From a virus (lineage: Duplodnaviria > Caudoviricetes): a stretch of DNA of 64,000 nt. This document shows positions 27,564-55,283 of the stretch, piece by piece (position 1 is the first letter of the stretch; each line of letters opens with the position of its first letter). The translations under genes were made by a program, and so were the position numbers. The stretch spans positions 8,965-72,964 of the IMG/VR virus record IMGVR_UViG_3300046473_000190, one strand, 5' to 3'. A model generated the notes under the pieces. That model had not been told where the DNA came from. It searched no databases and was given only the letters and a program-made list of their open reading frames with translations.

Positions 27564-27998
27564 CTAGAATCGCGGCCGGTAAGCAAGTGCGTGGTGGTGG
27601 GCGCAATAGGGGCGGTTCTCGAGTAGATCCGCCGTCGGGTCGCCGCAGTAAGCAGCTTCTGCCGTCATCCAGCGACAGGTGTGGTTTTCAAGTTCCATGA
27701 TTCCGATGGCGCGCCATCCCATGCGCTCGGACGGCGGCAATGGGGCGGGTGGCTTGGCTTTGGGTTTATACGGCCCCCGTGGCCCCCGCACATGCAGTGA
27801 AGGAGGTTTGGGCGGCTTTGAGGGTCGCGCTGGGGCTCTGATACCCAACCGAAAGGCTTTTCCTACGACAGAGTTGCGAGAAAGCGGCGCACTAAAAGCC
27901 TCGCTGAGAGCCAAGGCGGCCTCGCCGCGGCTTTGGCCCATATCCAACATCGCCCGTAGGGCGGCTATAGCGTCGTCAGTCCACACGAAGTCGGTCAT
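27564..27998 (-). CDS. gcrA: GcrA cell-cycle regulator homolog
   Basis: WTDDAIAALRAML..GQS....., SRNSVVGKAFRLG, IMELENHTCRW...YCG...PYCAHH..LAY. Confidence 0.9.
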   Translation of the reverse strand: MTDFVWTDDAIAALRAMLDMGQSRGEAALALSEAFSAPLSRNSVVGKAFRLGIRAPARPSKPPKPPSLHVRGPRGPYKPKAKPPAPLPPSERMGWRAIGIMELENHTCRWMTAEAAYCGDPTADLLENRPYCAHHHALAYRPRF

Positions 27999-28157
27999 GG
28001 GGCCCTCTAGATTAAACCAATGGGTGGGCGTCTCTGGGCGATTGGAAGGCATTGCGGGGAAAAGCGAGCCATCGGCCGATCCACGGACACGGGGGTCAAG
28101 GGGGGCTAGACGGAAAATGCCCAAGGTGACCGATGGCTCAGTTTCAACGTACCACGC

Positions 28158-28707: not shown

Positions 28708-29148
28708 TTACAAATCCACGTCCCAATCATCATCTCGCATTAAGCTTTCGTCCGCCTTGTATTTCGTAGCTGTCTTTTCGGATTGATTCTCTCGCTGGAA
28801 ATGGGTCTTGGCGTATTCGACATTTTGCTTTCTGAGCCACCACATGATTTCCGGCGACGGATTGGCAGGCTCGGGGGCATTGTCAGGCGGCCATTCATTG
28901 TAAATCGCGCGATACTTATGGGCTACCCACCCCGCCTTATAGCCACGTTCTCGAGCGATTGACAGCAACCCGGCGTATGTCAGGATTCTGGCCTCGTCCG
29001 GCGGTGTGACGCCACCATTCAACATGGCGTGCTTTATAACGCGGACGGATCGGGCTACCCGGCTGCCGCAGGCGTTGCAGCGCAGTTGCTTTCCTTTTGG
29101 GACGGTGATTTCTGCGTGGTGATGGCAGGAGACACAGATTATAAACAT
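28708..29148 (-). CDS. Zn-ribbon protein resembling the C-terminal part of phage SF2 helicases
   Basis: CVSC...CNAC and ERGYKAGWVAHKYRAIYNEWP. Confidence 0.55.
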   Translation of the reverse strand: MFIICVSCHHHAEITVPKGKQLRCNACGSRVARSVRVIKHAMLNGGVTPPDEARILTYAGLLSIARERGYKAGWVAHKYRAIYNEWPPDNAPEPANPSPEIMWWLRKQNVEYAKTHFQRENQSEKTATKYKADESLMRDDDWDVDL

Positions 29149-30071
29149 TGACGTGGAACCAATATTTGCCCCGTAGACCGCCAAATTTCACAGAACCGAG
29201 CTGCATCAGCACCAAAATAGCTGATGACTATTCCTTTTGTTGGGGAGGTTGCCGCCGACTGTCCGGTTGGAGGGTAAAAGTTTGGCCGACCATTTACAAT
29301 GCAATGTGCTTGAACCAATTGAGGAATTTGGGTGTAAAACCATTTTGACGACATGCTGGCAACATTCAAGCAGGTAACTGCATTAGTCACGTTGCCTTGT
29401 CTCAGTTCACTACAGAGGCGCAAGATGAATTGGCCGGCACTGCCCTCACCTCGTCCATAAGGCGGATTGAGCCAAACAGACCCCCGCCAAGGAAGAGTCA
29501 AATCCAATCCATTCGTTTGCCGTGTATAGAATAGCTTAGCTTTAATGAATTTTCCGTTAACTGCAACAGATGTGGCCGGGTCAGTGTAAATTTCCCCGCC
29601 TAAAGACAAACGACCTAACTCTACTAAATCTTCCGGCGTGTACCATTCGTCCGTCAAGGAACTGTTTTGCAGTTGTTTGGCCGTTATTTCCAGTCGGTTC
29701 TTAATCGGAAGACGAGATAACAGCGAAATTTGGCCGTTAACCTCGACCGCATGAGGACTAAGATTTTCCGGACCCCAAACTGAATACGGAATTTCAGGCA
29801 ATTCTGTCGCAATATCCACCTGAGGATGAGAAAATCCCCTTTCCATCAGTAAGATTATATATTCCAAAATTTCGTCATTAGCGTTATAAAATTCTTTCCC
29901 TCTGATGAGGTGCCGCTCAAAATATCGGTGCAACCGTACCTCATCGTCGATTGTTCCCGGCATAGCGCAAATGCTTTCGAAGCCGTATTGAGCATGCTGC
30001 TTTAAGCGTTTGCCCGCATCTTGCGCATAACCTATTTTGAGTTCTTCATTCCGTTGCGCAAAGTATAGCAT
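29139..30071 (-). CDS. N-terminal T5orf172/GIY-YIG-like domain fused to phage DNA N6-adenine methyltransferase
   Basis: LYFAQ...LKIGYA....RL...E..LH..F....EFY; DEWYTP, TDPA, WLNPPYG; GGAGG RBS. Confidence 0.8.
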   Translation of the reverse strand: MLYFAQRNEELKIGYAQDAGKRLKQHAQYGFESICAMPGTIDDEVRLHRYFERHLIRGKEFYNANDEILEYIILLMERGFSHPQVDIATELPEIPYSVWGPENLSPHAVEVNGQISLLSRLPIKNRLEITAKQLQNSSLTDEWYTPEDLVELGRLSLGGEIYTDPATSVAVNGKFIKAKLFYTRQTNGLDLTLPWRGSVWLNPPYGRGEGSAGQFILRLCSELRQGNVTNAVTCLNVASMSSKWFYTQIPQLVQAHCIVNGRPNFYPPTGQSAATSPTKGIVISYFGADAARFCEIWRSTGQILVPRQCL

Positions 30072-30072
30072 T

Positions 30073-30243
30073 TTAATCCCTCCTACTGTTCCTTTCGAGC
30101 GCCGCCAAAGCACGGCAAATCATGTTGTCTTTGCTGAGTGGGCCCAACTCGTAAACGCCAAGAGCGATGTCGTCTAAAGCCTCGCGCAGGCGGGTTATTT
30201 CCTTCTTGAGGGCGAGGCGTTCTAAGTAGCGTTCTTTGTCCAT
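30073..30243 (-). CDS. hypothetical protein, 56 aa
   Basis: Manual translation MDKERYLERLALKKEITRLREALDDI; AAGGT RBS-like. Confidence 0.45.
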   Translation of the reverse strand: MDKERYLERLALKKEITRLREALDDIALGVYELGPLSKDNMICRALAALERNSRRD

Positions 30244-34125: not shown

Positions 34126-34758
34126 ATGAATCCTATGAATTCAGGAGAAACCGCTGAACTCGTGACTGCATTGGCAAAAGCGCAAGCTGTTATGCCGCCG
34201 GTGCCCTTCAATAAGAAGGTGGATTTTGTTTCCAAGAACGGAAGCCGCCGAAAATACAGCTATGCCGATTTGACGGCGATATTTTCTGTTACCAAAAAGC
34301 CCTTGGGCGATAATGGTCTTTCGGTGACACAAACGACTGCGATACAAGACGAAAGAATTATTCTTACGACCACGCTTTGGCATACTTCAGGTCAATGGAT
34401 TGCCAGCGAATTTCCCTTGCGGGCCGGGTTGGAACCGCAGGAGTTTGCGTCTTTACTGACCTATAACAAGCGGTACCAATATTGCGCACTTTTAGGTGTT
34501 AGCGCCGATGAGGACGACGACGGCGAGGCCACGCGCAAGAGCAATGGTGCTGCGGTCGTGCCGACCGGCGAGGTTCTGAGCGAGGAACAGTGTCAAACGC
34601 TTGTGGCTGCGCTTGAGGCTCGCAAAATGCCGGTTAAGCGGCTGATGAAATACGTTTCCACCGTCTTTGGCGATGAACTGACGGAGGTGGCCGACATTCC
34701 TGCGGAACTTTACGAACAATGCCTGAAGAAAATTCAGAAGCAGGAGACGGCCGAGTGA
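34126..34758 (+). CDS. erf: ERF-family single-strand annealing protein
   Basis: ALAKAQ..., YSYADL..I, TTLWHTSGQW, ASLLTYNKRYQYCALLGVSADEDDDG. Confidence 0.9.
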   Translation: MNPMNSGETAELVTALAKAQAVMPPVPFNKKVDFVSKNGSRRKYSYADLTAIFSVTKKPLGDNGLSVTQTTAIQDERIILTTTLWHTSGQWIASEFPLRAGLEPQEFASLLTYNKRYQYCALLGVSADEDDDGEATRKSNGAAVVPTGEVLSEEQCQTLVAALEARKMPVKRLMKYVSTVFGDELTEVADIPAELYEQCLKKIQKQETAE

Positions 34759-35447
34759 TTGAGCAACGCACGCCGGAATGGCACGCGCTTAGGCTCGGCA
34801 AGCTAACTGCGAGCCGTATCGCCGACGCGACGGCCCGCACCAAAACTGGCTGGGGCGCCAGTCGCGCCAATTACATGGCTGAATTATTGACTGAGCGCCT
34901 GACAGGGCAACCCTATCCACAATATCGCAATGCCGCCATGGATTGGGGCACCCAGACGGAGCCTGAGGCTCGCACGGTCTATGAGTTCGAGCGCAACGTG
35001 ACGGTCGAGGAGGTTGGGTTTGTTCCGCACTCGCGTATTGCGATGTCGGGCGCATCTCCTGATGGGTTGGTAGGCAAGGGGCTTGACCAAGAGTGGGGGC
35101 TGGTCGAATTCAAGTGTCCGAATACGAGCACTCACATTGCCGTCTTGCTGGGCGAGGGAGGGATGGACCCGGCCTATACCAAGCAGGTCCAATGGCAGAT
35201 GGCTTGCTGTCCCGGTAGGAAGTGGTGCGATTGGGTGAGTTATGATCCACGGCTGCCAGCAGCAATGCGGATAGTGATCGTTCGTGTGCCGCGTGATGAC
35301 AAGATGATTGCCAAGCTCGAGGCTGAAGTTACTGAGTTCCTTGCTGAATTGGCCACCAAGCAAATCCAATTATTGGAACGGTATGCCAACCGCCGGTCCC
35401 CTGACAGCCTGATGGAACAATTGCGGCAATCGGCGGCTGTCGCATGA
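34755..35447 (+). CDS. YqaJ/lambda-exonuclease-like recombinase partner
   Basis: EQRTPEWHALRLGKLTAS, AMDWGTQTEPEAR, GASPDGLV, EFKCP, QVQWQM. Confidence 0.9.
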   Translation: MIEQRTPEWHALRLGKLTASRIADATARTKTGWGASRANYMAELLTERLTGQPYPQYRNAAMDWGTQTEPEARTVYEFERNVTVEEVGFVPHSRIAMSGASPDGLVGKGLDQEWGLVEFKCPNTSTHIAVLLGEGGMDPAYTKQVQWQMACCPGRKWCDWVSYDPRLPAAMRIVIVRVPRDDKMIAKLEAEVTEFLAELATKQIQLLERYANRRSPDSLMEQLRQSAAVA

Positions 35448-35605: not shown

Positions 35606-35931
35606 TGCGGAATATCAGCGACCAGGATGTAGAGACGGCTTTCGACTGGCTGCGCGAGAATGCATCTGCGGCGGCCAAGGCCAGGGCGGAGCGGGTCTAT
35701 TTAGAGGCTTTTTCTAAGTCGCTTAAGGCCTTGTTGATGCAGAATAGCGATAAGAAGTCGATTTCCGAACAAGAGCGCGATGCTTATGCGGCTCCAACAT
35801 ACCTTAAACACTTGCAGGCGCTCAAGGAAGCGGTGTTCGAAGACGAGAAAATAAGGTTTTTGCGCGAGGCCGCGCTGGCTAAAGTCGACGCTTGGAGAAG
35901 TGCCTCGGCTAATGAACGGGTGCGGGTATGA
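35602..35931 (+). CDS. conserved phage helical protein
   Basis: ISEQERDAYA...AKVDAWRSASANER. Confidence 0.6.
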   Translation: MMRNISDQDVETAFDWLRENASAAAKARAERVYLEAFSKSLKALLMQNSDKKSISEQERDAYAAPTYLKHLQALKEAVFEDEKIRFLREAALAKVDAWRSASANERVRV

Positions 35932-36281
35932 GGTCGGTTCCCCAATGGCACGGTCGCACTGACGACTCGCCCATACCTTTACGGGTACGTTTACGGGTAT
36001 GGGAACGCTGCGAAGGGTGTTGCACGTCCTGTTCTCGCAAGATTCATGTTGGGCAAAAATGGGAACTTGACCACGGCATGCCTCTCATTCTCGGTGGGGC
36101 GCACGCTGAGAACAACCTGCGCGTCATATGCGATTGGTGCCACAAGGCCAAAACGCGCACCGAGCAGGCTCGCAAGGCCAAGGCGGACCATGTAGCGAAA
36201 CGGCATGCAGGGATTAGGAAACGGCGGTCTTTTCGGGCTTGGCGCAAATTTGACGGTACGATTGTCCATGCTGACGACTAA
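35928..36281 (+). CDS. HNH endonuclease
   Basis: CTSC...WELDHGMPLILGGAHAENNLRVICDWCHKAKT. Confidence 0.88.
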   Translation: MRSVPQWHGRTDDSPIPLRVRLRVWERCEGCCTSCSRKIHVGQKWELDHGMPLILGGAHAENNLRVICDWCHKAKTRTEQARKAKADHVAKRHAGIRKRRSFRAWRKFDGTIVHADD

Positions 36282-36412
36282 TTCCCCGACGTGGCGGGGC
36301 CCCAATGCTCCGGGGGTAGCCACGACAGAGTCCAGCGGGCGGTGACTCTGTTTCGGAAACAACACCCGCAGCGGCGGCGCTTATCTCCTGTGAGTGGCCG
36401 CCGCAACTCAAT

Positions 36413-36512
36413 TGTGATGTCGTCACAAAATGTATGATTGTTCGATAATGGCTGTTGACAGTAGAGGGTTTATTGCCCTATAGTGGTTTCATCAGAACGG
36501 GAGATGGACATG
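36413..36512 (+). promoter_or_regulatory. sigma70 promoter/operator/RBS module, copy 1
   Basis: TGTGA-N5-TCACA, TTGACA 36455, N18, TATAGT 36479, GGAGATGGACATG. Confidence 0.85.
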
Positions 36513-36644
36513 AGCAAAGCAAAACCCTGCAAACCCTGCAAACTCTGTAAACTCTGTAAGCGCCCCACTCTAGCTAAGGATCAAATCTGCGACCGGCATT
36601 ATATGGATAAGCCTCGCAGTCTCCCGCTGCCGTCACGCAAATGA
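36510..36644 (+). CDS. Cys/Lys-rich 44 aa peptide (KPCKPCKLCKLCK)
   Basis: First ORF after promoter copy 1; four tandem 9-mers 36522-36557. Confidence 0.55.
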   Translation: MSKAKPCKPCKLCKLCKRPTLAKDQICDRHYMDKPRSLPLPSRK

Positions 36645-36668
36645 ACCCCCACCCAACAGGAGACGGAC

Positions 36669-36779
36669 ATGACAGACAACCTATTCGACCTAGTCCTTCA
36701 GATGCGCGCCGAACAAGCCAAAAAAGACCAAGAAGCCAAGGACGCCATCGAGCAGGAAAAGAAGGCACGGGCGCGCTAA
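36669..36779 (+). CDS. 36 aa helical peptide ending RAR-stop
   Basis: AACAGGAGACGGACATG leader. Confidence 0.6.
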   Translation: MTDNLFDLVLQMRAEQAKKDQEAKDAIEQEKKARAR

Positions 36780-36808
36780 TGCGCCCCAACCAACAGGAGA
36801 TGGACATG
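36768..36808 (+). repeat. junction repeat CGGGCGCGCTAATGCGCCCC-N-CCAACAGGAGA(T/C)GGACATG, copy 1
   Basis: Also at 37371-37411 and 38270-38314. Confidence 0.9.
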
Positions 36809-36877
36809 TTGGCCTTGGGCGACATGGTATCTTATGGTTCCCCAAAGTATCTTAGTGGCGCCTTATGGCTCCGATGA
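36806..36877 (+). CDS. 23 aa peptide (may be non-coding remnant)
   Basis: Consensus RBS leader but very short. Confidence 0.3.
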   Translation: MLALGDMVSYGSPKYLSGALWLR

Positions 36878-36899
36878 ATGCCATAAAACACGCCGCAAA

Positions 36900-36998
36900 T
36901 GTGATGTCATCACAAAATGTATGATTGTTTGGATATGGCTGTTGACATAGAGGGTCTATCGCCCTATAGTGGTTTCATCAGAACAGGAGATGGACATG
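36900..36998 (+). promoter_or_regulatory. sigma70 promoter/operator/RBS module, copy 2
   Basis: TGTGATGTCATCACA, TTGACA 36942, N17, TATAGT 36965. Confidence 0.9.
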
Positions 36999-37190
36999 AC
37001 CAAGATTGAAAAGCAAGTCTGGAACAAGACCCACCGCGATTACCGCTCAATTATCAATGGCGAGCGCTACGTGATGCAATACAACTCACAAAGTGGCGGC
37101 AGCGAATTGGTTCCCTTGTCCTCTTGCCGCAAAGTCACCGAAGCTTACGAGGAATTGAGCCACCGTGCCGGTATTGTGGCCGCCGACTAA
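36996..37190 (+). CDS. hypothetical protein, 64 aa
   Basis: Follows promoter copy 2. Confidence 0.65.
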   Translation: MTKIEKQVWNKTHRDYRSIINGERYVMQYNSQSGGSELVPLSSCRKVTEAYEELSHRAGIVAAD

Positions 37191-37202
37191 CAGGAGAGGG
37201 AC

Positions 37203-37382
37203 ATGACCAATCAGGAAATCATCGACAACCTCTACGAAGCCCTTAATGGCCTGAGCATCGGCTGGCAAATGACTAATCTGAAGGACGAGGCCAAACGCCA
37301 ACACCTGCAGGCTCCGGTAAATGCGGCTATCGCAGCAGTTTCACAGGTTATCGCCGAGTTCGAGAATGGTCGGGCGCGCTAA
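37203..37382 (+). CDS. 59 aa helical protein ending RAR-stop
   Basis: AACAGGAGAGGGACATG leader. Confidence 0.6.
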   Translation: MTNQEIIDNLYEALNGLSIGWQMTNLKDEAKRQHLQAPVNAAIAAVSQVIAEFENGRAR

Positions 37383-37411
37383 TGCGCCCCATCCAACAGG
37401 AGACGGACATG
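37371..37411 (+). repeat. junction repeat, copy 2
   Basis: CGGGCGCGCTAATGCGCCCCATCCAACAGGAGACGGACATG. Confidence 0.9.
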
Positions 37412-37576
37412 ACCGCAACAGATGATCGCCGCAACCTTGTTGAGTTGTTTGATCTTGCCCGCAATATCGCCGGTTTGGATGAACGCTCAATTATGGCAAT
37501 GGACCTGCATACTCTCCGAGCCACATTGCGAGAATACCGCGATCTGGCTCGCGTCATGCTGGAAACAGTTACATAA
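37409..37576 (+). CDS. hypothetical protein, 55 aa
   Basis: Consensus leader. Confidence 0.6.
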   Translation: MTATDDRRNLVELFDLARNIAGLDERSIMAMDLHTLRATLREYRDLARVMLETVT

Positions 37577-37577
37577 A

Positions 37578-37805
37578 ATGACCCCCACCGAATTCCGCTC
37601 CGCTCTAGCCGCCCTTAACCTCTCTCAGGTAGGGGCGGCTAGAGCATGGGGAGTCAACCCGCGCACTGTTCGCGATTGGGCAGACATGAGAGGGAAGGGT
37701 CCACCACCACCTATTCCAGCACTGCTCTCGGAGGTAGTTTGGCTGCGGAATAATGTTCCAGACTATGCTGAGCGGTTTGTTCTCAGCAGAGCGATAAAAA
37801 TGTGA
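37578..37805 (+). CDS. XRE-type helix-turn-helix regulator
   Basis: MTPTEFRSALAALNLSQVGAARAWGVNPRTVRDWA. Confidence 0.8.
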   Translation: MTPTEFRSALAALNLSQVGAARAWGVNPRTVRDWADMRGKGPPPPIPALLSEVVWLRNNVPDYAERFVLSRAIKM

Positions 37806-37898
37806 TGCCGTCACAAAATGTATGATTGTTGGATATGGCTGTTGACATAGAGGGTCTATCGCCCTATAGTGGTTTTATCAGAACGGGAGATGGACATG
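37801..37898 (+). promoter_or_regulatory. sigma70 promoter/operator/RBS module, copy 3
   Basis: TGTGA-N5-TCACA, TTGACA 37842, N17, TATAGT 37865. Confidence 0.9.
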
Positions 37899-38075
37899 AC
37901 CGAACTAGACCTCGACCAAGTATTACTCCCGCAAGTCGCACAGCTTGCAGAAGCGGGTGGCGGGTGGGCAAACTGGAATGATCTTCCCGGCGGCGACGAA
38001 TGGGTACAAGGCGCAATAGACCGTGGCTTGCTGCGCTACGAAGACGGCTTCGTGCAACTGGCAGCCAAATCATGA
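37896..38075 (+). CDS. acidic hypothetical protein, 59 aa
   Basis: Follows promoter copy 3. Confidence 0.65.
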   Translation: MTELDLDQVLLPQVAQLAEAGGGWANWNDLPGGDEWVQGAIDRGLLRYEDGFVQLAAKS

Positions 38076-38140
38076 CTTCACATCTCGGATTAACGGGATG
38101 GCAACTTGGATCAGCAGGACCAACAGAACAGGAGATGGAC

Positions 38141-38281
38141 ATGACCCGCTACCAAGTCACCGAAGGCAAAAACAGGAATTGGGCAGTTCTCGACACCACC
38201 ACCAATGCCCTCGTATTTGAAAGCGACTCTCGGCTGCTCACTTACGACAAACAAGAAGAGTTAACCCAGCGGGCGCGCTAA
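38141..38281 (+). CDS. 46 aa protein ending RAR-stop
   Basis: AACAGGAGATGGACATG leader. Confidence 0.6.
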   Translation: MTRYQVTEGKNRNWAVLDTTTNALVFESDSRLLTYDKQEELTQRAR

Positions 38282-38314
38282 TGCGCCCCTCTAAACCAAC
38301 AGGAGACGGACATG
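38270..38314 (+). repeat. junction repeat, copy 3
   Basis: CGGGCGCGCTAATGCGCCCCTCTAAACCAACAGGAGACGGACATG. Confidence 0.9.
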
Positions 38315-38461
38315 AATGACGAACGCAAAATAATCAAATATCTCGGTTACACCATCGAGCCAGAGAATAGCGGGAACCTATCAATCTACCGCTTTGGCTA
38401 CCTGACTAGCTTTCGCAGCATTGATGAATGCATGCGCTACATCGAATGGAAGGAGGCATAG
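38312..38461 (+). CDS. hypothetical protein, 49 aa
   Basis: Consensus leader; MNDERKIIKYLGYTI. Confidence 0.6.
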   Translation: MNDERKIIKYLGYTIEPENSGNLSIYRFGYLTSFRSIDECMRYIEWKEA

Positions 38462-38463
38462 CC

Positions 38464-38583
38464 ATGAAGGATAACGCCAAGCTCGTGATCCGTGCCGCGC
38501 TCTACGCTGCCTTAGGCTGGGGCGTGATTGCCTTAGTCATTCTCAGTACGGGCGCACATTACGACATTTGGCATGCGAGGTGA
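38464..38583 (+). CDS. small single-TM protein, 39 aa
   Basis: AAGGAGG RBS; hydrophobic helix. Confidence 0.55.
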   Translation: MKDNAKLVIRAALYAALGWGVIALVILSTGAHYDIWHAR

Positions 38584-38682
38584 GACGCTGGTAGCATCAA
38601 AGGGATGAGGTGTTGCTTAACCGCAACACTTTCCTAATATTGTTGCGTAGATAGCCGTCAAGGTGGTAAAGTTTAAGGCGCC

Positions 38683-39153
38683 ATGACAGACACGCTCGAT
38701 ATCAATCGCCCAAAACAAAACACCAAGACGCAAGTACGCCGTGCTGGTAAGGCTAAGCTAGCCCTCATGCTAGAGGCCACAAGAGGCCTAGATATCAGCA
38801 AGTTAGCCGTAGACCATTTGGTCGATGTGCTAGAGTTCTATGCCCGAATGTGTAACGCCGATCCGTCAAATATGGCCTCATGGATGGATAAGCGAGCTGC
38901 AGTAGCCGCTAGGTTAGCACCGTATCAATCGCCCACATTTCAGGCTATTTCCGTAACGGGAAATCAGCAGGATCAGGCCAAACTCGCGCAAATGAGCGAT
39001 GCGGAGTTAGCTATGGCGCTGAAAGCACGGGCTGAAGACCTCGGGATGGAAGTTAAGATACGGTCAAAGCTGGAGTATCGGGCGAAACACTTCGCGCGGA
39101 CGATAGACGAAGAGATCCTCAATGGCCCGCAGCGGGAAGAGAACGAAGGTTGA
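38683..39153 (+). CDS. putative terminase small subunit
   Basis: AAVAARLAPYQSPTFQAISVTG and LAQMSDAEL motifs; upstream of TerL. Confidence 0.5.
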   Translation: MTDTLDINRPKQNTKTQVRRAGKAKLALMLEATRGLDISKLAVDHLVDVLEFYARMCNADPSNMASWMDKRAAVAARLAPYQSPTFQAISVTGNQQDQAKLAQMSDAELAMALKARAEDLGMEVKIRSKLEYRAKHFARTIDEEILNGPQREENEG

Positions 39154-39787: not shown

Positions 39788-41101
39788 ATGACGGTTGAGC
39801 TGCTGGCGGGCGACTGCCTCGAGCTATTGCCGGCATTGGCCGGGAACAGCGTGGATTCGTGCGTGACCGATCCGCCGTATCATTTGACCAGCATTGTTAA
39901 GAGATACAGTGCTCCCGATGCCGCTCCTTCAAGAGATAAGCGCGGAATTAGCGGACCATTTGTGGGAGTTTCATCCGGCTTCATGGGCAAGCAATGGGAT
40001 GGCGGGGACATAGCGTTTCGGCCCGATGTCTGGCGCGAGGTGTATCGTGTCCTCAGGCCTGGCGCGCACCTCTTAGCCTTCGGCGGCACGCGCACCTATC
40101 ACCGCCTGGCCTGCGCGATCGAGGATGCGGGGTTCGAGATACGCGATACGATCATGTGGGTTTACGGGAGCGGATTTCCCAAAAGTCATTCCGTCAGCGT
40201 TGCGATAGACAAATCAAACGGCGTTGCTCCGCGTAGTAAAGCTTTCAACATGAAGGGACGCGGCGACCGCGCCGAAGAAATGGACACTAATGGGCGCGAG
40301 TTTCTGCCACCATATGAAGCAACAACAGAGGCCGCCCGCCAATGGCAAGGCTGGGGCACTGCGCTTAAGCCCGCATGCGAGCCAGTCGTGCTCGCCCGCA
40401 AGCCGCTCTCGGAAAAGACGGTGGCGGCCAATGTGCTGCGGTGGGGAACCGGGGCGATAAATGTGGACGGGTGTCGAATTGAGACGAACGGCGAAGACAG
40501 ATCAGCGCGATATAACAATAAGCCGCCGTTAGGTGAAGGCGACAACGTTAAATTTGGCAAGAGAGACGAAGTGTGGATCGCTCCAGAAGGCCGTTGGCCT
40601 GCCAATCTCATCCATGACGGCAGCGAGGAAGTGCTGGCGGGGTTTCCTGAGAGCGACGGAGGGGCCGTCTCCGACTATAATTGGAACGAAAGCAATAACG
40701 ACAATCCTACACACGTAACCCGTAACATTAAGAGCGGAATTCATTTTGGCGACTCCGGCTCTGCCGCCCGCTTCTTTTATACGTCAAAAGCGGATCAAGA
40801 CGATAGGTTGGGCAGTTGTCATCCAACGGTGAAACCGCTGGACTTGATGCAATACCTTGTCCGGCTGGTGACACCGCCCAAGGGCCTCGTCCTTGATCCG
40901 TTTGCCGGTACTGGCACAACCGGCGAGGCGGCGTTTCGGGAGGGGATGCGTGCGGTGCTGATCGAGCGCGAGGCGGAGTATCAAGCGGACATCAAGCGGC
41001 GCATAGCGATGCTGCTGGGCGGGCCGGAGGAGCGGGCGCGCGAGGCCATCAAGGAGCGCATGAAGGACAAGCCGCGGGATGATGGGCCGTTATTCGCATG
41101 A
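39788..41101 (+). CDS. beta-class DNA methyltransferase (N4-C/N6-A)
   Basis: VTDPPY before HPTVKP and VLDPFAGTGTT. Confidence 0.92.
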   Translation: MTVELLAGDCLELLPALAGNSVDSCVTDPPYHLTSIVKRYSAPDAAPSRDKRGISGPFVGVSSGFMGKQWDGGDIAFRPDVWREVYRVLRPGAHLLAFGGTRTYHRLACAIEDAGFEIRDTIMWVYGSGFPKSHSVSVAIDKSNGVAPRSKAFNMKGRGDRAEEMDTNGREFLPPYEATTEAARQWQGWGTALKPACEPVVLARKPLSEKTVAANVLRWGTGAINVDGCRIETNGEDRSARYNNKPPLGEGDNVKFGKRDEVWIAPEGRWPANLIHDGSEEVLAGFPESDGGAVSDYNWNESNNDNPTHVTRNIKSGIHFGDSGSAARFFYTSKADQDDRLGSCHPTVKPLDLMQYLVRLVTPPKGLVLDPFAGTGTTGEAAFREGMRAVLIEREAEYQADIKRRIAMLLGGPEERAREAIKERMKDKPRDDGPLFA

Positions 41102-41334
41102 AAGCCGATGACCAAATCTTTACCACTCCCGGCGTTGTTTTAAATCGCATTGCGTCGGTGTTCCACTGTCCGAAGGATCGGATTGAGGAGGTATTGGAGG
41201 AACTTATGGAGCGGCCGATAGAGAGGGCGGCGGGGTCCGAGGCCAGGCTAGCGGTTATTCGGCGGGCTTTGAACACGCCGGAGGCAGCGAGTGTGATTGA
41301 GATGGCGCAGGTGTTTTGGGATGGGGCGAAGTGA
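41098..41334 (+). CDS. hypothetical protein
   Basis: Overlaps both neighbours. Confidence 0.55.
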   Translation: MKADDQIFTTPGVVLNRIASVFHCPKDRIEEVLEELMERPIERAAGSEARLAVIRRALNTPEAASVIEMAQVFWDGAK

Positions 41335-43061
41335 ATATTCAGATTGATACTCAAGCTCTGATTGACGAATGCGATCGCCGCAAGGCCATCGAGGCGCAGT
41401 CGCAGTATGGTTACTACGACAGTGTAGGAATACGACAGTGTGGGTTAATAGCGTTCGTGCGGTATTTCTGGCCGGTGCTCGAGCCCGATGCGCCGTTCAT
41501 CGATGGCTGGCCGCTCTGGGCGATGTGCGAGCATTTGGAGGCCATCACGCGGGGCGACATCATTCGGCTACTGATTAATGTGCCGCCTGGTTTTATGAAG
41601 TCCATGCTGACGAACATATTCTGGCCGGCGTGGGAGTGGGGGGCGATGGGGCATTCGAGCTATCGCTATGTGTGTTTTAGTTATTCGGCCTCGCTGACGG
41701 AGCGCGACAACGACAAGTTCCGGGTGTTGGTGGCGTCGGAGAGGTATCAGGCGCTATATGGGCCGGTTCGCATTGAGGCGGAACGTGCCATCACGCTGGA
41801 GAACAAGACGATAACGAAGGTGAAGAATGTCAGGACGGGATGGAAGCTCGCTTCATCGGTCGGTGGTGTGGGTACCGGCGAGCGCGGGGACAGGGTCATC
41901 ATCGATGACCCTCACAACGTTGTGGAATCGGAGTCGGAAATCGTTAGAGGTGAGACTATCCGATGGTTCCGGGAGTCTGTCAGTTCCCGACTCAATAATC
42001 TTGACACTGGGGCCATTGTCGTCATCGGACAGCGTGTTCACCAGTATGACGTATCTGGCATTATCCAGTCTCAGGATTTCGACTACGAGCATTTGATGAT
42101 TCCGTGGGAGTTGGATCGGGATCGGGTGGTGGACGAGGACGGCAAGCCGTTTGAGACAGCGATAGGCTGGTATGATCCGCGGTTGGACGACGAGGACGGG
42201 GAAGAGGAACCGGCATGGCTGGACAGGTTCAGCGAAAGGGCGATGGATCGGACGCGGCTGGAGATCGGGCCGTATGCGTGGGCGGCGCAGTACCAGCAAT
42301 CGCCTGCGCCGCGTGGTGGCGGATTATTCAAGCGTCATTGGTGGAGGCCGTGGGAAACGAGCGACGGGCGGTATCCCCTTTTCAGCTATGTGATTGCGAG
42401 CCTGGACGTTGCTGTAACCGAAAAAGCGGAGAATAATCCCAGCGGATTTACGGTATGGGGGATATTTCAGCCGGATGACAGCGAGAACCCGGCCATTATG
42501 CTGATTGACGCCTGGCGCAAGCGATTGAACATGCATGGCGATCCGTCGCCGCGGATTATCACGGAAATCCCGCAGATCGGCGACGACCGGCAGACAGTGA
42601 TTAATCGCAACGTAGCCTGGAAGCGGCGGACGAGCGAGGGCTGGGGACTGGTTGAATGGGTAGCTTATACGTGCCGGGTGAGGTGCGCGGATTTGCTGTT
42701 GATTGAATGCGAGAAGGGCGGCATTGTTGCGGCGCAGGAGATGCAGCGGCTTTACGGCGGGGAGAATTGGTCGGTGCATTTGCAGCCTGTGAAGGGGGAC
42801 AAGCATGCGCGGGCGATGGCCGTTGTTCCGACATTTTCGCAGGGCAAGGTATATGCGCCGACCAAGGACTGGGCCGAGATGGTGATTGACGAGATGGAAG
42901 CGTTTCCGAAGCATCGCTATGACGACTTGACGGACTCGACCACGCAGGCCATTCGGTATTTCCGGGATGCCGGATTGGCGCGGACGGACGAGGAAATCCA
43001 AGCGGAGGTCTACGAGCGCGTGCGGCACAAGCCGCAACCGAAGGCTCTTTATCCGGTGTAA
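41331..43061 (+). CDS. terL: terminase large subunit
   Basis: Walker A NVPPGFMKS, Walker B VIIDDPH, YQQSP, C-terminal YDDLTDSTTQA. Confidence 0.92.
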   Translation: MNIQIDTQALIDECDRRKAIEAQSQYGYYDSVGIRQCGLIAFVRYFWPVLEPDAPFIDGWPLWAMCEHLEAITRGDIIRLLINVPPGFMKSMLTNIFWPAWEWGAMGHSSYRYVCFSYSASLTERDNDKFRVLVASERYQALYGPVRIEAERAITLENKTITKVKNVRTGWKLASSVGGVGTGERGDRVIIDDPHNVVESESEIVRGETIRWFRESVSSRLNNLDTGAIVVIGQRVHQYDVSGIIQSQDFDYEHLMIPWELDRDRVVDEDGKPFETAIGWYDPRLDDEDGEEEPAWLDRFSERAMDRTRLEIGPYAWAAQYQQSPAPRGGGLFKRHWWRPWETSDGRYPLFSYVIASLDVAVTEKAENNPSGFTVWGIFQPDDSENPAIMLIDAWRKRLNMHGDPSPRIITEIPQIGDDRQTVINRNVAWKRRTSEGWGLVEWVAYTCRVRCADLLLIECEKGGIVAAQEMQRLYGGENWSVHLQPVKGDKHARAMAVVPTFSQGKVYAPTKDWAEMVIDEMEAFPKHRYDDLTDSTTQAIRYFRDAGLARTDEEIQAEVYERVRHKPQPKALYPV

Positions 43062-43214: not shown

Positions 43215-43724
43215 ATGGGCCCCTACGAGGCATCGCTGCGTCAGGCGACGATAGAGCGGCGGCGGCGGCTGACGTTTCCGCAGCGGAAGGAAACGGAATG
43301 CCGGACAATCTTGTCTTGTACTTTCTCACCGCGGTCATGTTCAGTTTTGCCGTCGTTGCCACCATCGGTCATTTCGTCCGGTAAGCCTCGATTGACCATT
43401 CATGCCGTCAAGGCGCGGGTGGCGGCGGCTTTCGGGATATCCACGAAGAACAAGCGGATTTGGTTGCAAAGGCGCAGTGAGCGGATGTATAGCTCCCGGA
43501 ATGTCGCGATGGCGTTGGCGAGGGAATTGGTTCCTGACGCATCGTTTACGAAAATAGCACGGGCTTTTGGCGAGAGGTCTCATTGCACGGTTTTGCGGGC
43601 GTGCCGGTCGGTGGAAAGCCGGTGCAAAACGGATGATGAATTCAGTTCGATGGTGTGGGGGTTACGGACGATATTGCGGGAGAATTTCGAGAGTGGAGAG
43701 GGGAATGGTCAAGAGACGGACTAG
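43215..43724 (+). CDS. DnaA C-terminal (domain IV) HTH protein
   Basis: VAAAFGIS...RRSERMYSSRNVAMALARELVPDASFTKIARAFGERSHCTVLRA. Confidence 0.75.
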   Translation: MGPYEASLRQATIERRRRLTFPQRKETECRTILSCTFSPRSCSVLPSLPPSVISSGKPRLTIHAVKARVAAAFGISTKNKRIWLQRRSERMYSSRNVAMALARELVPDASFTKIARAFGERSHCTVLRACRSVESRCKTDDEFSSMVWGLRTILRENFESGEGNGQETD

Positions 43725-55017: not shown

Positions 55018-55046
55018 TTGACACCGGATAAAGGATATGCTATACT
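55018..55046 (+). promoter_or_regulatory. near-consensus sigma70 promoter
   Basis: TTGACA-N17-TATACT. Confidence 0.85.
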
Positions 55047-55076: not shown

Positions 55077-55283
55077 ATGTTGGATGTTCTGAAGGACGGC
55101 CCGTTCCGCTATCTACACTGCCAAGCAACCGGCCAATTAATCTTGACGCTCTCTAAAGCACGCAATGCTAACGGCCGAGAAACCGGACGCTTTGTGGAGT
55201 ATGAAGGTGAGGACGCTCCGGTTGAAAAAACATTGCGACAATGGAAAGCCATCGCTCGCAAGCGTGTAGGGTATCGGGTCTAG
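55077..55283 (+). CDS. moron-like hypothetical protein
   Basis: Own promoter and GAGGGG RBS. Confidence 0.6.
   Translation: MLDVLKDGPFRYLHCQATGQLILTLSKARNANGRETGRFVEYEGEDAPVEKTLRQWKAIARKRVGYRV

Follow-up and report, generated by a model that had tools for sequence, protein, structure and literature searches.

The DNA considered here is a 64,000-nt stretch of the genome of a tailed phage (Caudoviricetes), which comprises bases 8965-72964 of the 72,964-bp IMG/VR virus record IMGVR_UViG_3300046473_000190 and is called the window below. Between the genes for an HNH endonuclease and a probable small terminase (TerS), the window contains an array of three repeated promoter modules, which head three mini-operons of three to four small genes each; 11 open reading frames (ORFs) are present in total, and one of them encodes a small helix-turn-helix (HTH) protein. 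This interval, from the HNH gene and the adjoining Proteo-phage-1 RNA motif to TerS, is an accessory region of the 73-kb rhizosphere phage. Then, what kind of system could such an array be? An earlier note, made by a model from the letters alone, had described its architecture as Acr/Aca-like, that is, like the loci of anti-CRISPR genes and their HTH regulators.

Three promoter modules and their palindromes

Three direct-repeat modules of about 105 nt were found on the plus strand by repeat search, which bears out the report in the earlier note of a module of about 100 bp in three copies. Each is built of a 15-bp palindrome, an A/T-rich block, a promoter of the form TTGACA-N17/18-TATAGT and a conserved leader with ribosome-binding site (RBS), leading into an ATG:

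36409-36515, plus strand: module P1, with palindrome 36413-36427, A/T-rich block 36428-36454, -35 hexamer 36455-36460, -10 hexamer 36479-36484 and ATG 36510
36896-37001, plus strand: module P2, with palindrome 36900-36914, -35 hexamer 36942-36947, -10 hexamer 36965-36970 and ATG 36996
37797-37901, plus strand: module P3, with palindrome 37801-37815, -35 hexamer 37842-37847, -10 hexamer 37865-37870 and ATG 37896

P2 and P3 are 97% identical across 73 nt. The two hexamers are separated by 18 nt in P1 (36455-36484) and by 17 nt in P2 (36942-36970) and P3 (37842-37870), and they match in 11 of 12 positions in each module; as the earlier note had it, the promoter is present in every copy, and these are the top three promoter-like sites within 27-44 kb. 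For the whole 64 kb, the pattern TTGACA-N16-18-TATAVT has four matches, with 0.01 expected. The stretch from the palindrome to the -35 hexamer is about 67% A+T, compared with 45% genome-wide, and may act as an UP element. Two other candidate signals were examined and rejected. An upstream promoter that uses the right arm of the palindrome as its -35 element (GTCACA-N16-GATAAT) is decent in copy 1 only. A leader hairpin enclosing the Shine-Dalgarno (SD) sequence (UCAUC...GAUGG; GUAUC...GAUAC in the related contig L005) has a consensus energy of -1.9 kcal/mol, and its compensatory changes come from one sequence. Elsewhere in the window, the only other promoter of the perfect class is TTGACA-N17-TATACT at 55018-55046, 5′ of a small ORF starting at 55078, within the glycosylation/head region.

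The palindrome has the consensus TGTGATG-N-CRTCACA. The arms of copy 2 are perfect over 7 bp (TGTGATG T CATCACA) and those of copies 1 and 3 have one mismatch each, so that the TGTGA-N5-TCACA inverted repeat of the earlier note was recovered as described. The 30-nt pattern TGTGATGYCRTCACAAAATGTATGATTGTT, which takes in the palindrome plus flank, has three exact matches (0.00 expected), and TGTGA-N5-7-TCACA has three as well (0.11 expected). Across the 72,964-bp genome, the palindrome with no more than two mismatches is found at these three sites only. Two further copies of the module, Pa and Pb, occur in L010, a 7.3-kb IMG/VR contig. Among the five copies, the best-conserved block is GTGATGYCRTCACAAAATGT followed by GATTG, which varies less than the two hexamers and the spacer of Pb. 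In all five, the centre of the palindrome lies 34-35 nt 5′ of the -35 start, which corresponds to about -70 if transcription starts 7 nt past the -10. As RNA, the palindrome folds with -4.9 kcal/mol (z -0.65), no better than its shuffles, and no U-tract follows; a role as RNA terminator was consequently dismissed as unlikely, and the palindrome is better read as a putative protein-binding site on DNA. A weaker inverted repeat (AGGG-N7-CCCT) is present in the spacer of the two hexamers, and it too folds as RNA no better than shuffles (-7.2 kcal/mol, z -0.35).

When viral contigs were scanned, the core promoter pattern and the strict pattern of the palindrome block gave no match. A relaxed 18-base form of the palindrome matched 3 viral and 24 metagenome loci; those other than L010 were set aside as chance matches, having no module context.

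The mini-operons and the HTH gene

The ORFs of the three units, A, B and C, are as follows:

36510-36644, plus strand: A1, 44 aa, Cys-rich, with a 9-nt tandem repeat
36669-36779, plus strand: A2, 36 aa, ending in RAR and stop
36806-36877, plus strand: A3, 23 aa, possibly a remnant
36996-37190, plus strand: B1, 64 aa
37203-37382, plus strand: B2, 59 aa, ending in RAR and stop
37409-37576, plus strand: B3, 55 aa
37578-37805, plus strand: XRE-type HTH protein, 75 aa, closing unit B
37896-38075, plus strand: C1, 59 aa
38141-38281, plus strand: C2, 46 aa, ending in RAR and stop
38312-38461, plus strand: C3, 49 aa
38464-38583, plus strand: C4, 39 aa, hydrophobic

Two further families of short repeats, which the earlier note had not described, make the array a regular one. 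An RBS block, AACAGGAGAYGGACATGA, occurs in nine copies, all within 36496-38315, and precedes each ORF of unit A. A hairpin that contains a stop codon, CGGGCGCGCTAATGCGCCCC, occurs in three exact copies (0.05 expected), folds with -14.9 kcal/mol (z -2.5) and ends gene 2 of each unit with the residues RAR:

36768-36787, plus strand: hairpin-stop junction, followed by an RBS block
37371-37390, plus strand: hairpin-stop junction
38270-38289, plus strand: hairpin-stop junction

Each unit thus opens with the module and gene 1, continues past an RBS block with gene 2, which ends in the hairpin, and past another RBS block with gene 3; unit-specific additions are the HTH gene in unit B and the 39-aa hydrophobic ORF in unit C. 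The ATG within the junction was considered as a start codon and rejected, since only two of the three copies have it in the reading frame of the gene that follows. The exact junction pattern gave no match in a scan of viral contigs. In L007, a contig with a related HTH gene, the gene before the HTH ends in RAR and stop with CGGGCGCGCTAATG (130-155), and the ATG of this motif is the HTH start. The junctions of the window may be relics of such stop-start overlaps.

The ten cargo genes have no match in Pfam, PHROG or NCBIfam. Among 5.8 billion clusters, the homologues of B1 and of C1 are confined to their own clusters, and C3 is almost an ORFan according to the homologue search; an all-against-all blastp shows no relationship between cargo genes at corresponding positions in the three units. 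In codon-usage scoring, the annotated frame is the best of six for most of the cargo, including A2, unit B and unit C. The annotated frame of A1 is not the best-scoring one, and this ORF has the poorest coding score among the cargo. At 36522-36557, A1 contains four tandem 9-nt units, two of AAACCCTGC and two of AAACTCTGT, translated as KPC-KPC-KLC-KLC. An anti-defence function of any kind for the cargo, though a reasonable guess from the architecture, is doubtful, and an anti-CRISPR function specifically is less likely still.

The HTH gene starts 1 nt past the stop codon of B3, an arrangement of translational coupling, and its own TGA stop (37803-37805) is the TGA of the TGTGA in palindrome 3; it closes the second unit and ends within the third palindrome, just as the earlier note had observed. 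The label XRE-HTH given there fared differently in sequence and in structure searches. In Pfam, HTH_23 is the only match and is below threshold (18.3 bits against a cut-off of 24.6, E=0.002), and DUF1870 does not appear at E<=1; in PHROG, the protein matches phrog_4779 ‘transcriptional regulator’ (E=1e-4). A phmmer search against PDB gave no match. A profile search of PDB gave Aca1 at a non-significant E=0.29, so that Pfam and PDB yielded no sequence match to an Aca family. There are weak matches to excisionase/MerR-type HTHs and, in Pfam and the PDB profile search, nothing significant for Nu1- or TerS-type domains. An alignment of the HTH family, compared with genome contigs, found two remote matches only, in Roseomonas metagenome-assembled genomes, at 40% identity and in an uninformative context.

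The AlphaFold2 model, for which seven sequences were aligned (pLDDT 80), consists of five helices (3-12, 17-24, 28-36, 45-59 and 63-74) with no further domain. Foldseek returned nothing significant for it, with HigA2 best at E=0.045 and Aca2 at TM 0.71. On re-alignment by VIA, Aca2 (7vjo_A, of which residues 1-90 are the aligned part) came first with Z 8.4 and an rmsd of 2.4 Å over 68 of 75 residues, although SO3848, MqsA, Aca10 and HigA2 are within about 1 Z of it and values near 8 are common for small helical models; the other Z values were 7.3 for Aca10, 7.0 for HigA2 and 6.5 for Aca1. The fold neighbours are all XRE-type, and the atlas neighbours are small viral HTH_3 proteins. The model therefore supports an XRE fold for the protein, with Aca2, Aca10 and HigA2 as the nearest structures, none decisively; the XRE part of the label stands on the predicted fold, whereas Pfam, at its threshold, gives the label no support.

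Cargo exchange and possible control of the cassettes

Seven loci with the HTH gene were compared, that is, the window, L010, L007, L005, L009, L006 and L039, of which L039 was read outside the blastp of the other six. In that all-against-all comparison of small proteins, the HTHs alone match each other. The HTH gene is the sole conserved gene of the seven loci, with unrelated small ORFs before it, and its start overlaps the preceding stop or lies 1 nt beyond it in 7/7. As in the window, it stands at the 3′ end of a small-gene operon in L010, L005, L009, L006 and L039, and a similar promoter and leader usually precede it. The HTH operons of L005 and L009 have the promoter CTTGAC-N17-CTATAT, a related promoter is present in L039, and the leader of L005 (ATCGAAACGGGAGATACGGACATG) and of L039 is shared with the window. 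The motif (T)AGGG...CCCT(A) between -35 and -10 is common to the promoters of the window, L005, L009 and L039.

Relatives are few. One of them, L010, was also the only locus found by TerS-based searches. It contains, in order, an exonuclease gene, an HNH gene, the Proteo-phage-1 motif, module Pa, two cargo genes, the HTH gene, module Pb, one cargo gene, a hairpin and TerS, and its cargo is entirely unlike that of the window. L008, a 1.1-kb contig from another sample, follows the window over B1, B2, B3 and the initial ~44 codons of the HTH gene and agrees with L010 thereafter, which independently confirms the contiguity of B1-B2-B3-HTH. In both the window and L010/L008, a palindrome copy overlaps the 3′ end of the HTH gene. 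Contigs from the Logan assemblies of four rhizosphere and soil runs were compared with the stretch as well; some of the runs leave parts of it without contig cover. In one same-sample variant, an L010-type promoter is joined directly past the palindrome/AAAATGT..GATTG block; a variant contig shares 36472-36506 only (-10, leader and RBS), with a different -35 side and cargo gene; in others, different cargo is joined at 38464 and at 38607. A leader and RBS of the window type front different small genes in the viral contigs L039 and L040. Taken together, the comparisons with L010, L008, the variant contigs and L039/L040 indicate that the conserved non-coding modules are sites of cargo exchange. 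Two apparent joints were discarded. That from 37723 back to 36897 (by 827) is not a rearrangement, since an L010-type HTH end had been placed paralogously on palindrome 2, and that from 37186 to 38010 has sides of only ~20 nt.

Some further features of the related contigs were noted. In L005 (5760-6320), the -35 of the promoter contains the stop codon of an integrase gene. tRNA genes lie downstream of the HTH operon, directly in L005 and past an HNH gene in L009 (stretches 90-200 and 1737-1808), and both positions look prophage-end or moron-like. In L040 (1-520), the leader/RBS (ATCAGAACGGGAGATGGACATG) follows a promoter TTGACA-N17-TAAGGT and precedes two tiny ORFs, which adjoin iteron-like repeats of GTAAACC(A/G). 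The HTH operon of L039 (3749-5675) is divergent from TerS-like and TerL genes, and the HTH family adjoins or is close to terminase genes in four of the seven loci.

In T4-like phages, promoter-early stem-loop (PeSL) cassettes combine the stop codon of the preceding gene with an A/T-rich stretch, a strong promoter of the sigma70 type and an inverted repeat, and lead into the SD sequence and start codon of the gene that follows. Such cassettes are clustered ahead of ORFans in a plastic part of the genome (Arbiol et al., 2010, PMC2839356; Comeau et al., 2014, PMC4122927), and they function without dedicated regulators (PMC2839356). Likewise, the modules of the window place an A/T-rich stretch and a strong promoter between an upstream stop and the SD/start, are repeated before ORFans, and bound the differences among the window, L010, L008 and the variant contigs. 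However, the soil phage is not T4-like, having 73 kb and other TerL relatives. Its inverted repeats are weak RNA hairpins (-4.9 and -7.2 kcal/mol) for which a terminator role is unsupported, whereas its stronger hairpins lie at the hairpin-stop junctions and before TerS; its main palindrome has a fixed, operator-like upstream position; and the array adds RBS blocks, hairpin-stop junctions and a dedicated HTH gene. A second point of comparison is given by the tandem strong early promoters of virulent phages, such as T7 A1/A2/A3 and the SPO1 host-takeover module. Near-consensus host-type promoters in tandem, many tiny genes and strong RBSs are found here too, but the promoters of the present array share a palindrome and the HTH gene is encoded within the array.

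We consider it likely that the array is a set of three portable promoter-leader cassettes, driving ORFan mini-operons and forming a recombination scaffold, which is PeSL-like in an unrelated phage. For the fuller reading, a PeSL-like array of early-promoter cassettes that is probably under Aca-like feedback, our preference is slight. On balance, the architecture favours control of the cassettes by the HTH protein as an Aca-like autoregulator. That it acts through the palindrome at about -70, a candidate site, is a tentative proposal to which we give somewhat less than an even chance; the HTH might control the cassettes via the core promoter or the leader instead, or might exert no control.

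In the fuller reading, host RNA polymerase would fire the three promoters upon DNA entry, judging by the quality of the promoters, and the mini-genes would be made, for which accessory, host-takeover or anti-defence roles are plausible. The HTH protein, coupled to the last cargo gene of the second unit, would accumulate and feed back on the cassettes, giving an Aca-like circuit of one regulator on three operons. Its likeliest site would be the lineage-specific palindrome at ~-70, with the AGGG-N7-CCCT spacer repeat as the second candidate. A T-tailed hairpin before TerS would keep transcription of the array from the packaging genes. Cargo would be swapped in a PeSL-like manner by homologous recombination at the promoter cassette, the RBS block and the hairpin-stop junction, as the comparison of relatives shows.

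If this is true, promoter-cassette shuffling extends past the T4-like phages to an unrelated soil phage, where it is paired with feedback by an Aca-like regulator. The HTH family plus the leader could be a search handle for early, accessory and anti-defence genes in rhizosphere phages, in which almost nothing is annotated, and the array supplies about ten ORFan mini-proteins for screening. For a phage autorepressor, an operator placed at ~-70 would be geometrically unusual.

Several points weigh against this reading. The loci L005, L009 and L039 have a related promoter but no palindrome at -70; consequently, the link between HTH and palindrome is drawn from co-occurrence in one lineage only, and the HTH may recognise another site. 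A site at ~-70 cannot directly occlude RNA polymerase. To repress from there, a regulator would have to work in an unusual way, for example by an alpha-CTD/UP block or looping, and such a position is more typical of activators. The spacer repeat deserves little weight; with arm spacing that varies (N3 to N11) and a right arm that falls in the -10 region, it may be conserved for trivial reasons. The transcription start, the timing and the promoter activity in the host are all inferred. The Logan contigs break at the stretch identical in P2 and P3, so that the evidence for the succession of the three units is the original assembly, with partial support from L008 and L010.

One alternative is that the palindrome serves a host regulator or another phage regulator, which acts as a class I-type activator or modulator, and that the HTH has another job. 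Class I CRP sites are centred at -61.5 or -71.5. The palindrome, centred at about -70/-71 from the presumed start, has the helical face and distance of such sites, and it resembles a CRP half-site pair, AAATGTGAT...ATCACA, in its TGTGA...TCACA half-sites with AAA flanks. HTH-family loci lacking the palindrome exist, and the phage encodes further DNA-binding proteins, GcrA-like and with a DnaA_C-like HTH. Yet the spacer is N5, not N6, in the three copies of the window and the two of L010, giving an odd-length site with its dyad on a base pair, unlike those of the CRP/FNR family. Consequently, the palindrome is not a CRP box; the earlier note had likewise placed it upstream of the -35 and found it one base shorter than such a box. 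In addition, promoters with a perfect -35 and a near-perfect -10 should need no activation, and the site is confined to this lineage of phages, other database matches being due to chance. We regard this explanation as unlikely.

A further extension of the preferred reading is distinctly unlikely as well, namely that the XRE regulator controls the three ORFan operons from ~-70, upstream of the UP element, with no occlusion of the core promoter, and that the ten mini-proteins are new anti-defence or host-takeover effectors which soil phages exchange at the promoter cassette, the RBS block and the hairpin-stop junction. Blocking or capture of the alpha-CTD, or a switch from activation to repression, would be possible modes of such control.

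Could the units instead be true acr-aca loci, with anti-CRISPR or other anti-defence cargo and the HTH as an Aca repressor that shuts the three promoters via the palindrome, as a literal reading of the earlier note would have it? A strong promoter followed by small uncharacterised ORFan genes and a coupled small HTH gene in the same operon is what such loci look like, with the HTH conserved downstream of variable cargo, as in the seven loci, and with a palindromic site common to up to three neighbouring operons. Control of up to three adjacent operons by Aca proteins has been predicted (PMC13551039), and the HTH model is structurally nearest to Aca2, with Aca10 and Aca1 also among the nearest structures. 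To this extent, the Acr/Aca-like architecture of the earlier note is upheld. In all characterised Aca families, however, one inverted repeat (IR1) is within the core promoter (PMC9410906), and that of Aca2 blocks the -35 and -10 (PMC6765145), whereas the phage palindrome is outside the core promoter. Its absence from L005, L009 and L039 weakens the Acr/Aca reading too. The 75-aa HTH lacks the C-terminal dimerisation domain of Aca2, a protein of 116 aa (PMC8434428), as well as any sequence match to an Aca family in the Pfam and PDB searches. Its fold class also takes in antitoxins, C-proteins and Cro/CI repressors. The cargo, having no match to a known family in Pfam, PHROG or NCBIfam, includes no known Acr. 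True acr-aca loci are thus clearly unlikely.

It is improbable that the palindrome has no protein partner at all and is kept as an UP-element or recombination scaffold, the promoters being constitutive. In favour of this, variant contigs recombine directly past the palindrome/AAAATGT..GATTG block, the A/T-rich flank is UP-like, and PeSL cassettes need no dedicated regulator (PMC2839356). A recombination scaffold, however, does not need a palindrome, and the five copies keep their dyad symmetry although bases at the centre and in the flanks vary; furthermore, the block is translated in two ways at the 3′ ends of two HTH variants, and its DNA remains constant. Finally, it is very improbable that the HTH, rather than regulating the mini-operons, is a terminase-linked packaging or late-gene factor and the palindromes are its cosB- or pac-like sites near the genome end: the HNH-to-TerS interval is the place of cos sites in HK97-like phages, the HTH gene adjoins TerS in L007 and L039 and lies at most ~0.9 kb away in the window and in L010, and its weak matches are to excisionase/MerR-type HTHs, but the palindromes, with 487 and 901 bp from one to the next, are each locked to a promoter at a fixed distance, unlike clustered cosB R sites (a spacing on which a cosB-like reading of the three was rejected), the HTHs of L005, L009 and L006 do not adjoin terminase genes, and Nu1- and TerS-type domains are not matched significantly.

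Array borders and genome context

The array is bordered upstream by an RNA motif and a GC-rich hairpin and downstream by a second hairpin:

36284-36373, plus strand: Proteo-phage-1 RNA motif (Rfam RF03044), flanked by the HNH gene and module 1 and marking the array's upstream border
36371-36404, plus strand: GC-rich hairpin without U-tract, just 5′ of palindrome 1, -23.3 kcal/mol, z -2.96
38607-38632, plus strand: hairpin with a T-rich stretch behind it, in the interval from the array to TerS, -12.9 kcal/mol, z -2.56; terminator-like and a probable insulator that would shield the packaging genes from the array

The cmscan score of RF03044 is 41.9 bits for the window, just under the gathering score of 42 (E=2e-5), and its syntenic copy in L010 (1550-1639) is above the gathering score with 43.3 bits. 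The fixed place of this motif in the HNH-to-TerS interval could relate to genome ends. Both hairpins are kept in L010, the second with the same flanks, and it is there that variant contigs join. The second hairpin belongs to a conserved element of about 70 nt before TerS (38607-38680 in the window, 3068-3134 in L010), which is made up of the hairpin GTGTTGC...GCAACAC, the T-rich stretch and then TTGTTGCGTAGATAGC..GGTGGTAAAGTTTAAG; the element may join a terminator with a weak late promoter, TTGCGT-N18-TAAAGT.

The neighbouring genes, on a phage record that CheckV rates 100% complete and that carries nearly all of its genes on the plus strand, are as follows:

34126-34758: Erf-like annealing protein, upstream of the array
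34719-35447: exonuclease, upstream of the array
35928-36281, plus strand: HNH endonuclease (phrog_333, E=1.1e-17), upstream border gene
38683-39153, plus strand: probable small terminase TerS, 156 aa, downstream border of the array
39788-41101: DNA methyltransferase, downstream of the array
41316-43061: large terminase TerL (phrog_38, E=1.5e-71), downstream of the array

Judging from the position of its gene, the product of 38683-39153 is probably TerS; its identity is 90% with the L010 protein encoded at the same position and 47% with its counterpart in L007. By megablast, the phage has no close DNA relative in the GenBank phage collection; its nearest TerL relatives are from phages of Aeromonas, Paracoccus, Roseobacter and Rhizobium, and a relative from an Erythrobacter phage is among them too. 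The sequencing runs that contain its DNA are rhizosphere or soil metagenomes throughout, and no RNA run was listed among them. Based on these runs and the TerL relatives from phages of Paracoccus, Roseobacter, Rhizobium and Erythrobacter, together with the Roseomonas homologue of the HTH, a GcrA-like gene and a DnaA_C-type HTH, the host is probably an alphaproteobacterium in soil. The GcrA-like gene, a homologue of the cell-cycle regulator, is at 27567-28124 on the minus strand (E=2.7e-14), a Dam-type methyltransferase gene is at 29142-30113 on the same strand, and the protein with a DnaA C-terminal-type HTH is encoded at 43215-43721 on the plus strand, between the TerL and portal genes; the three constitute an alphaproteobacterial cell-cycle toolkit on the phage.

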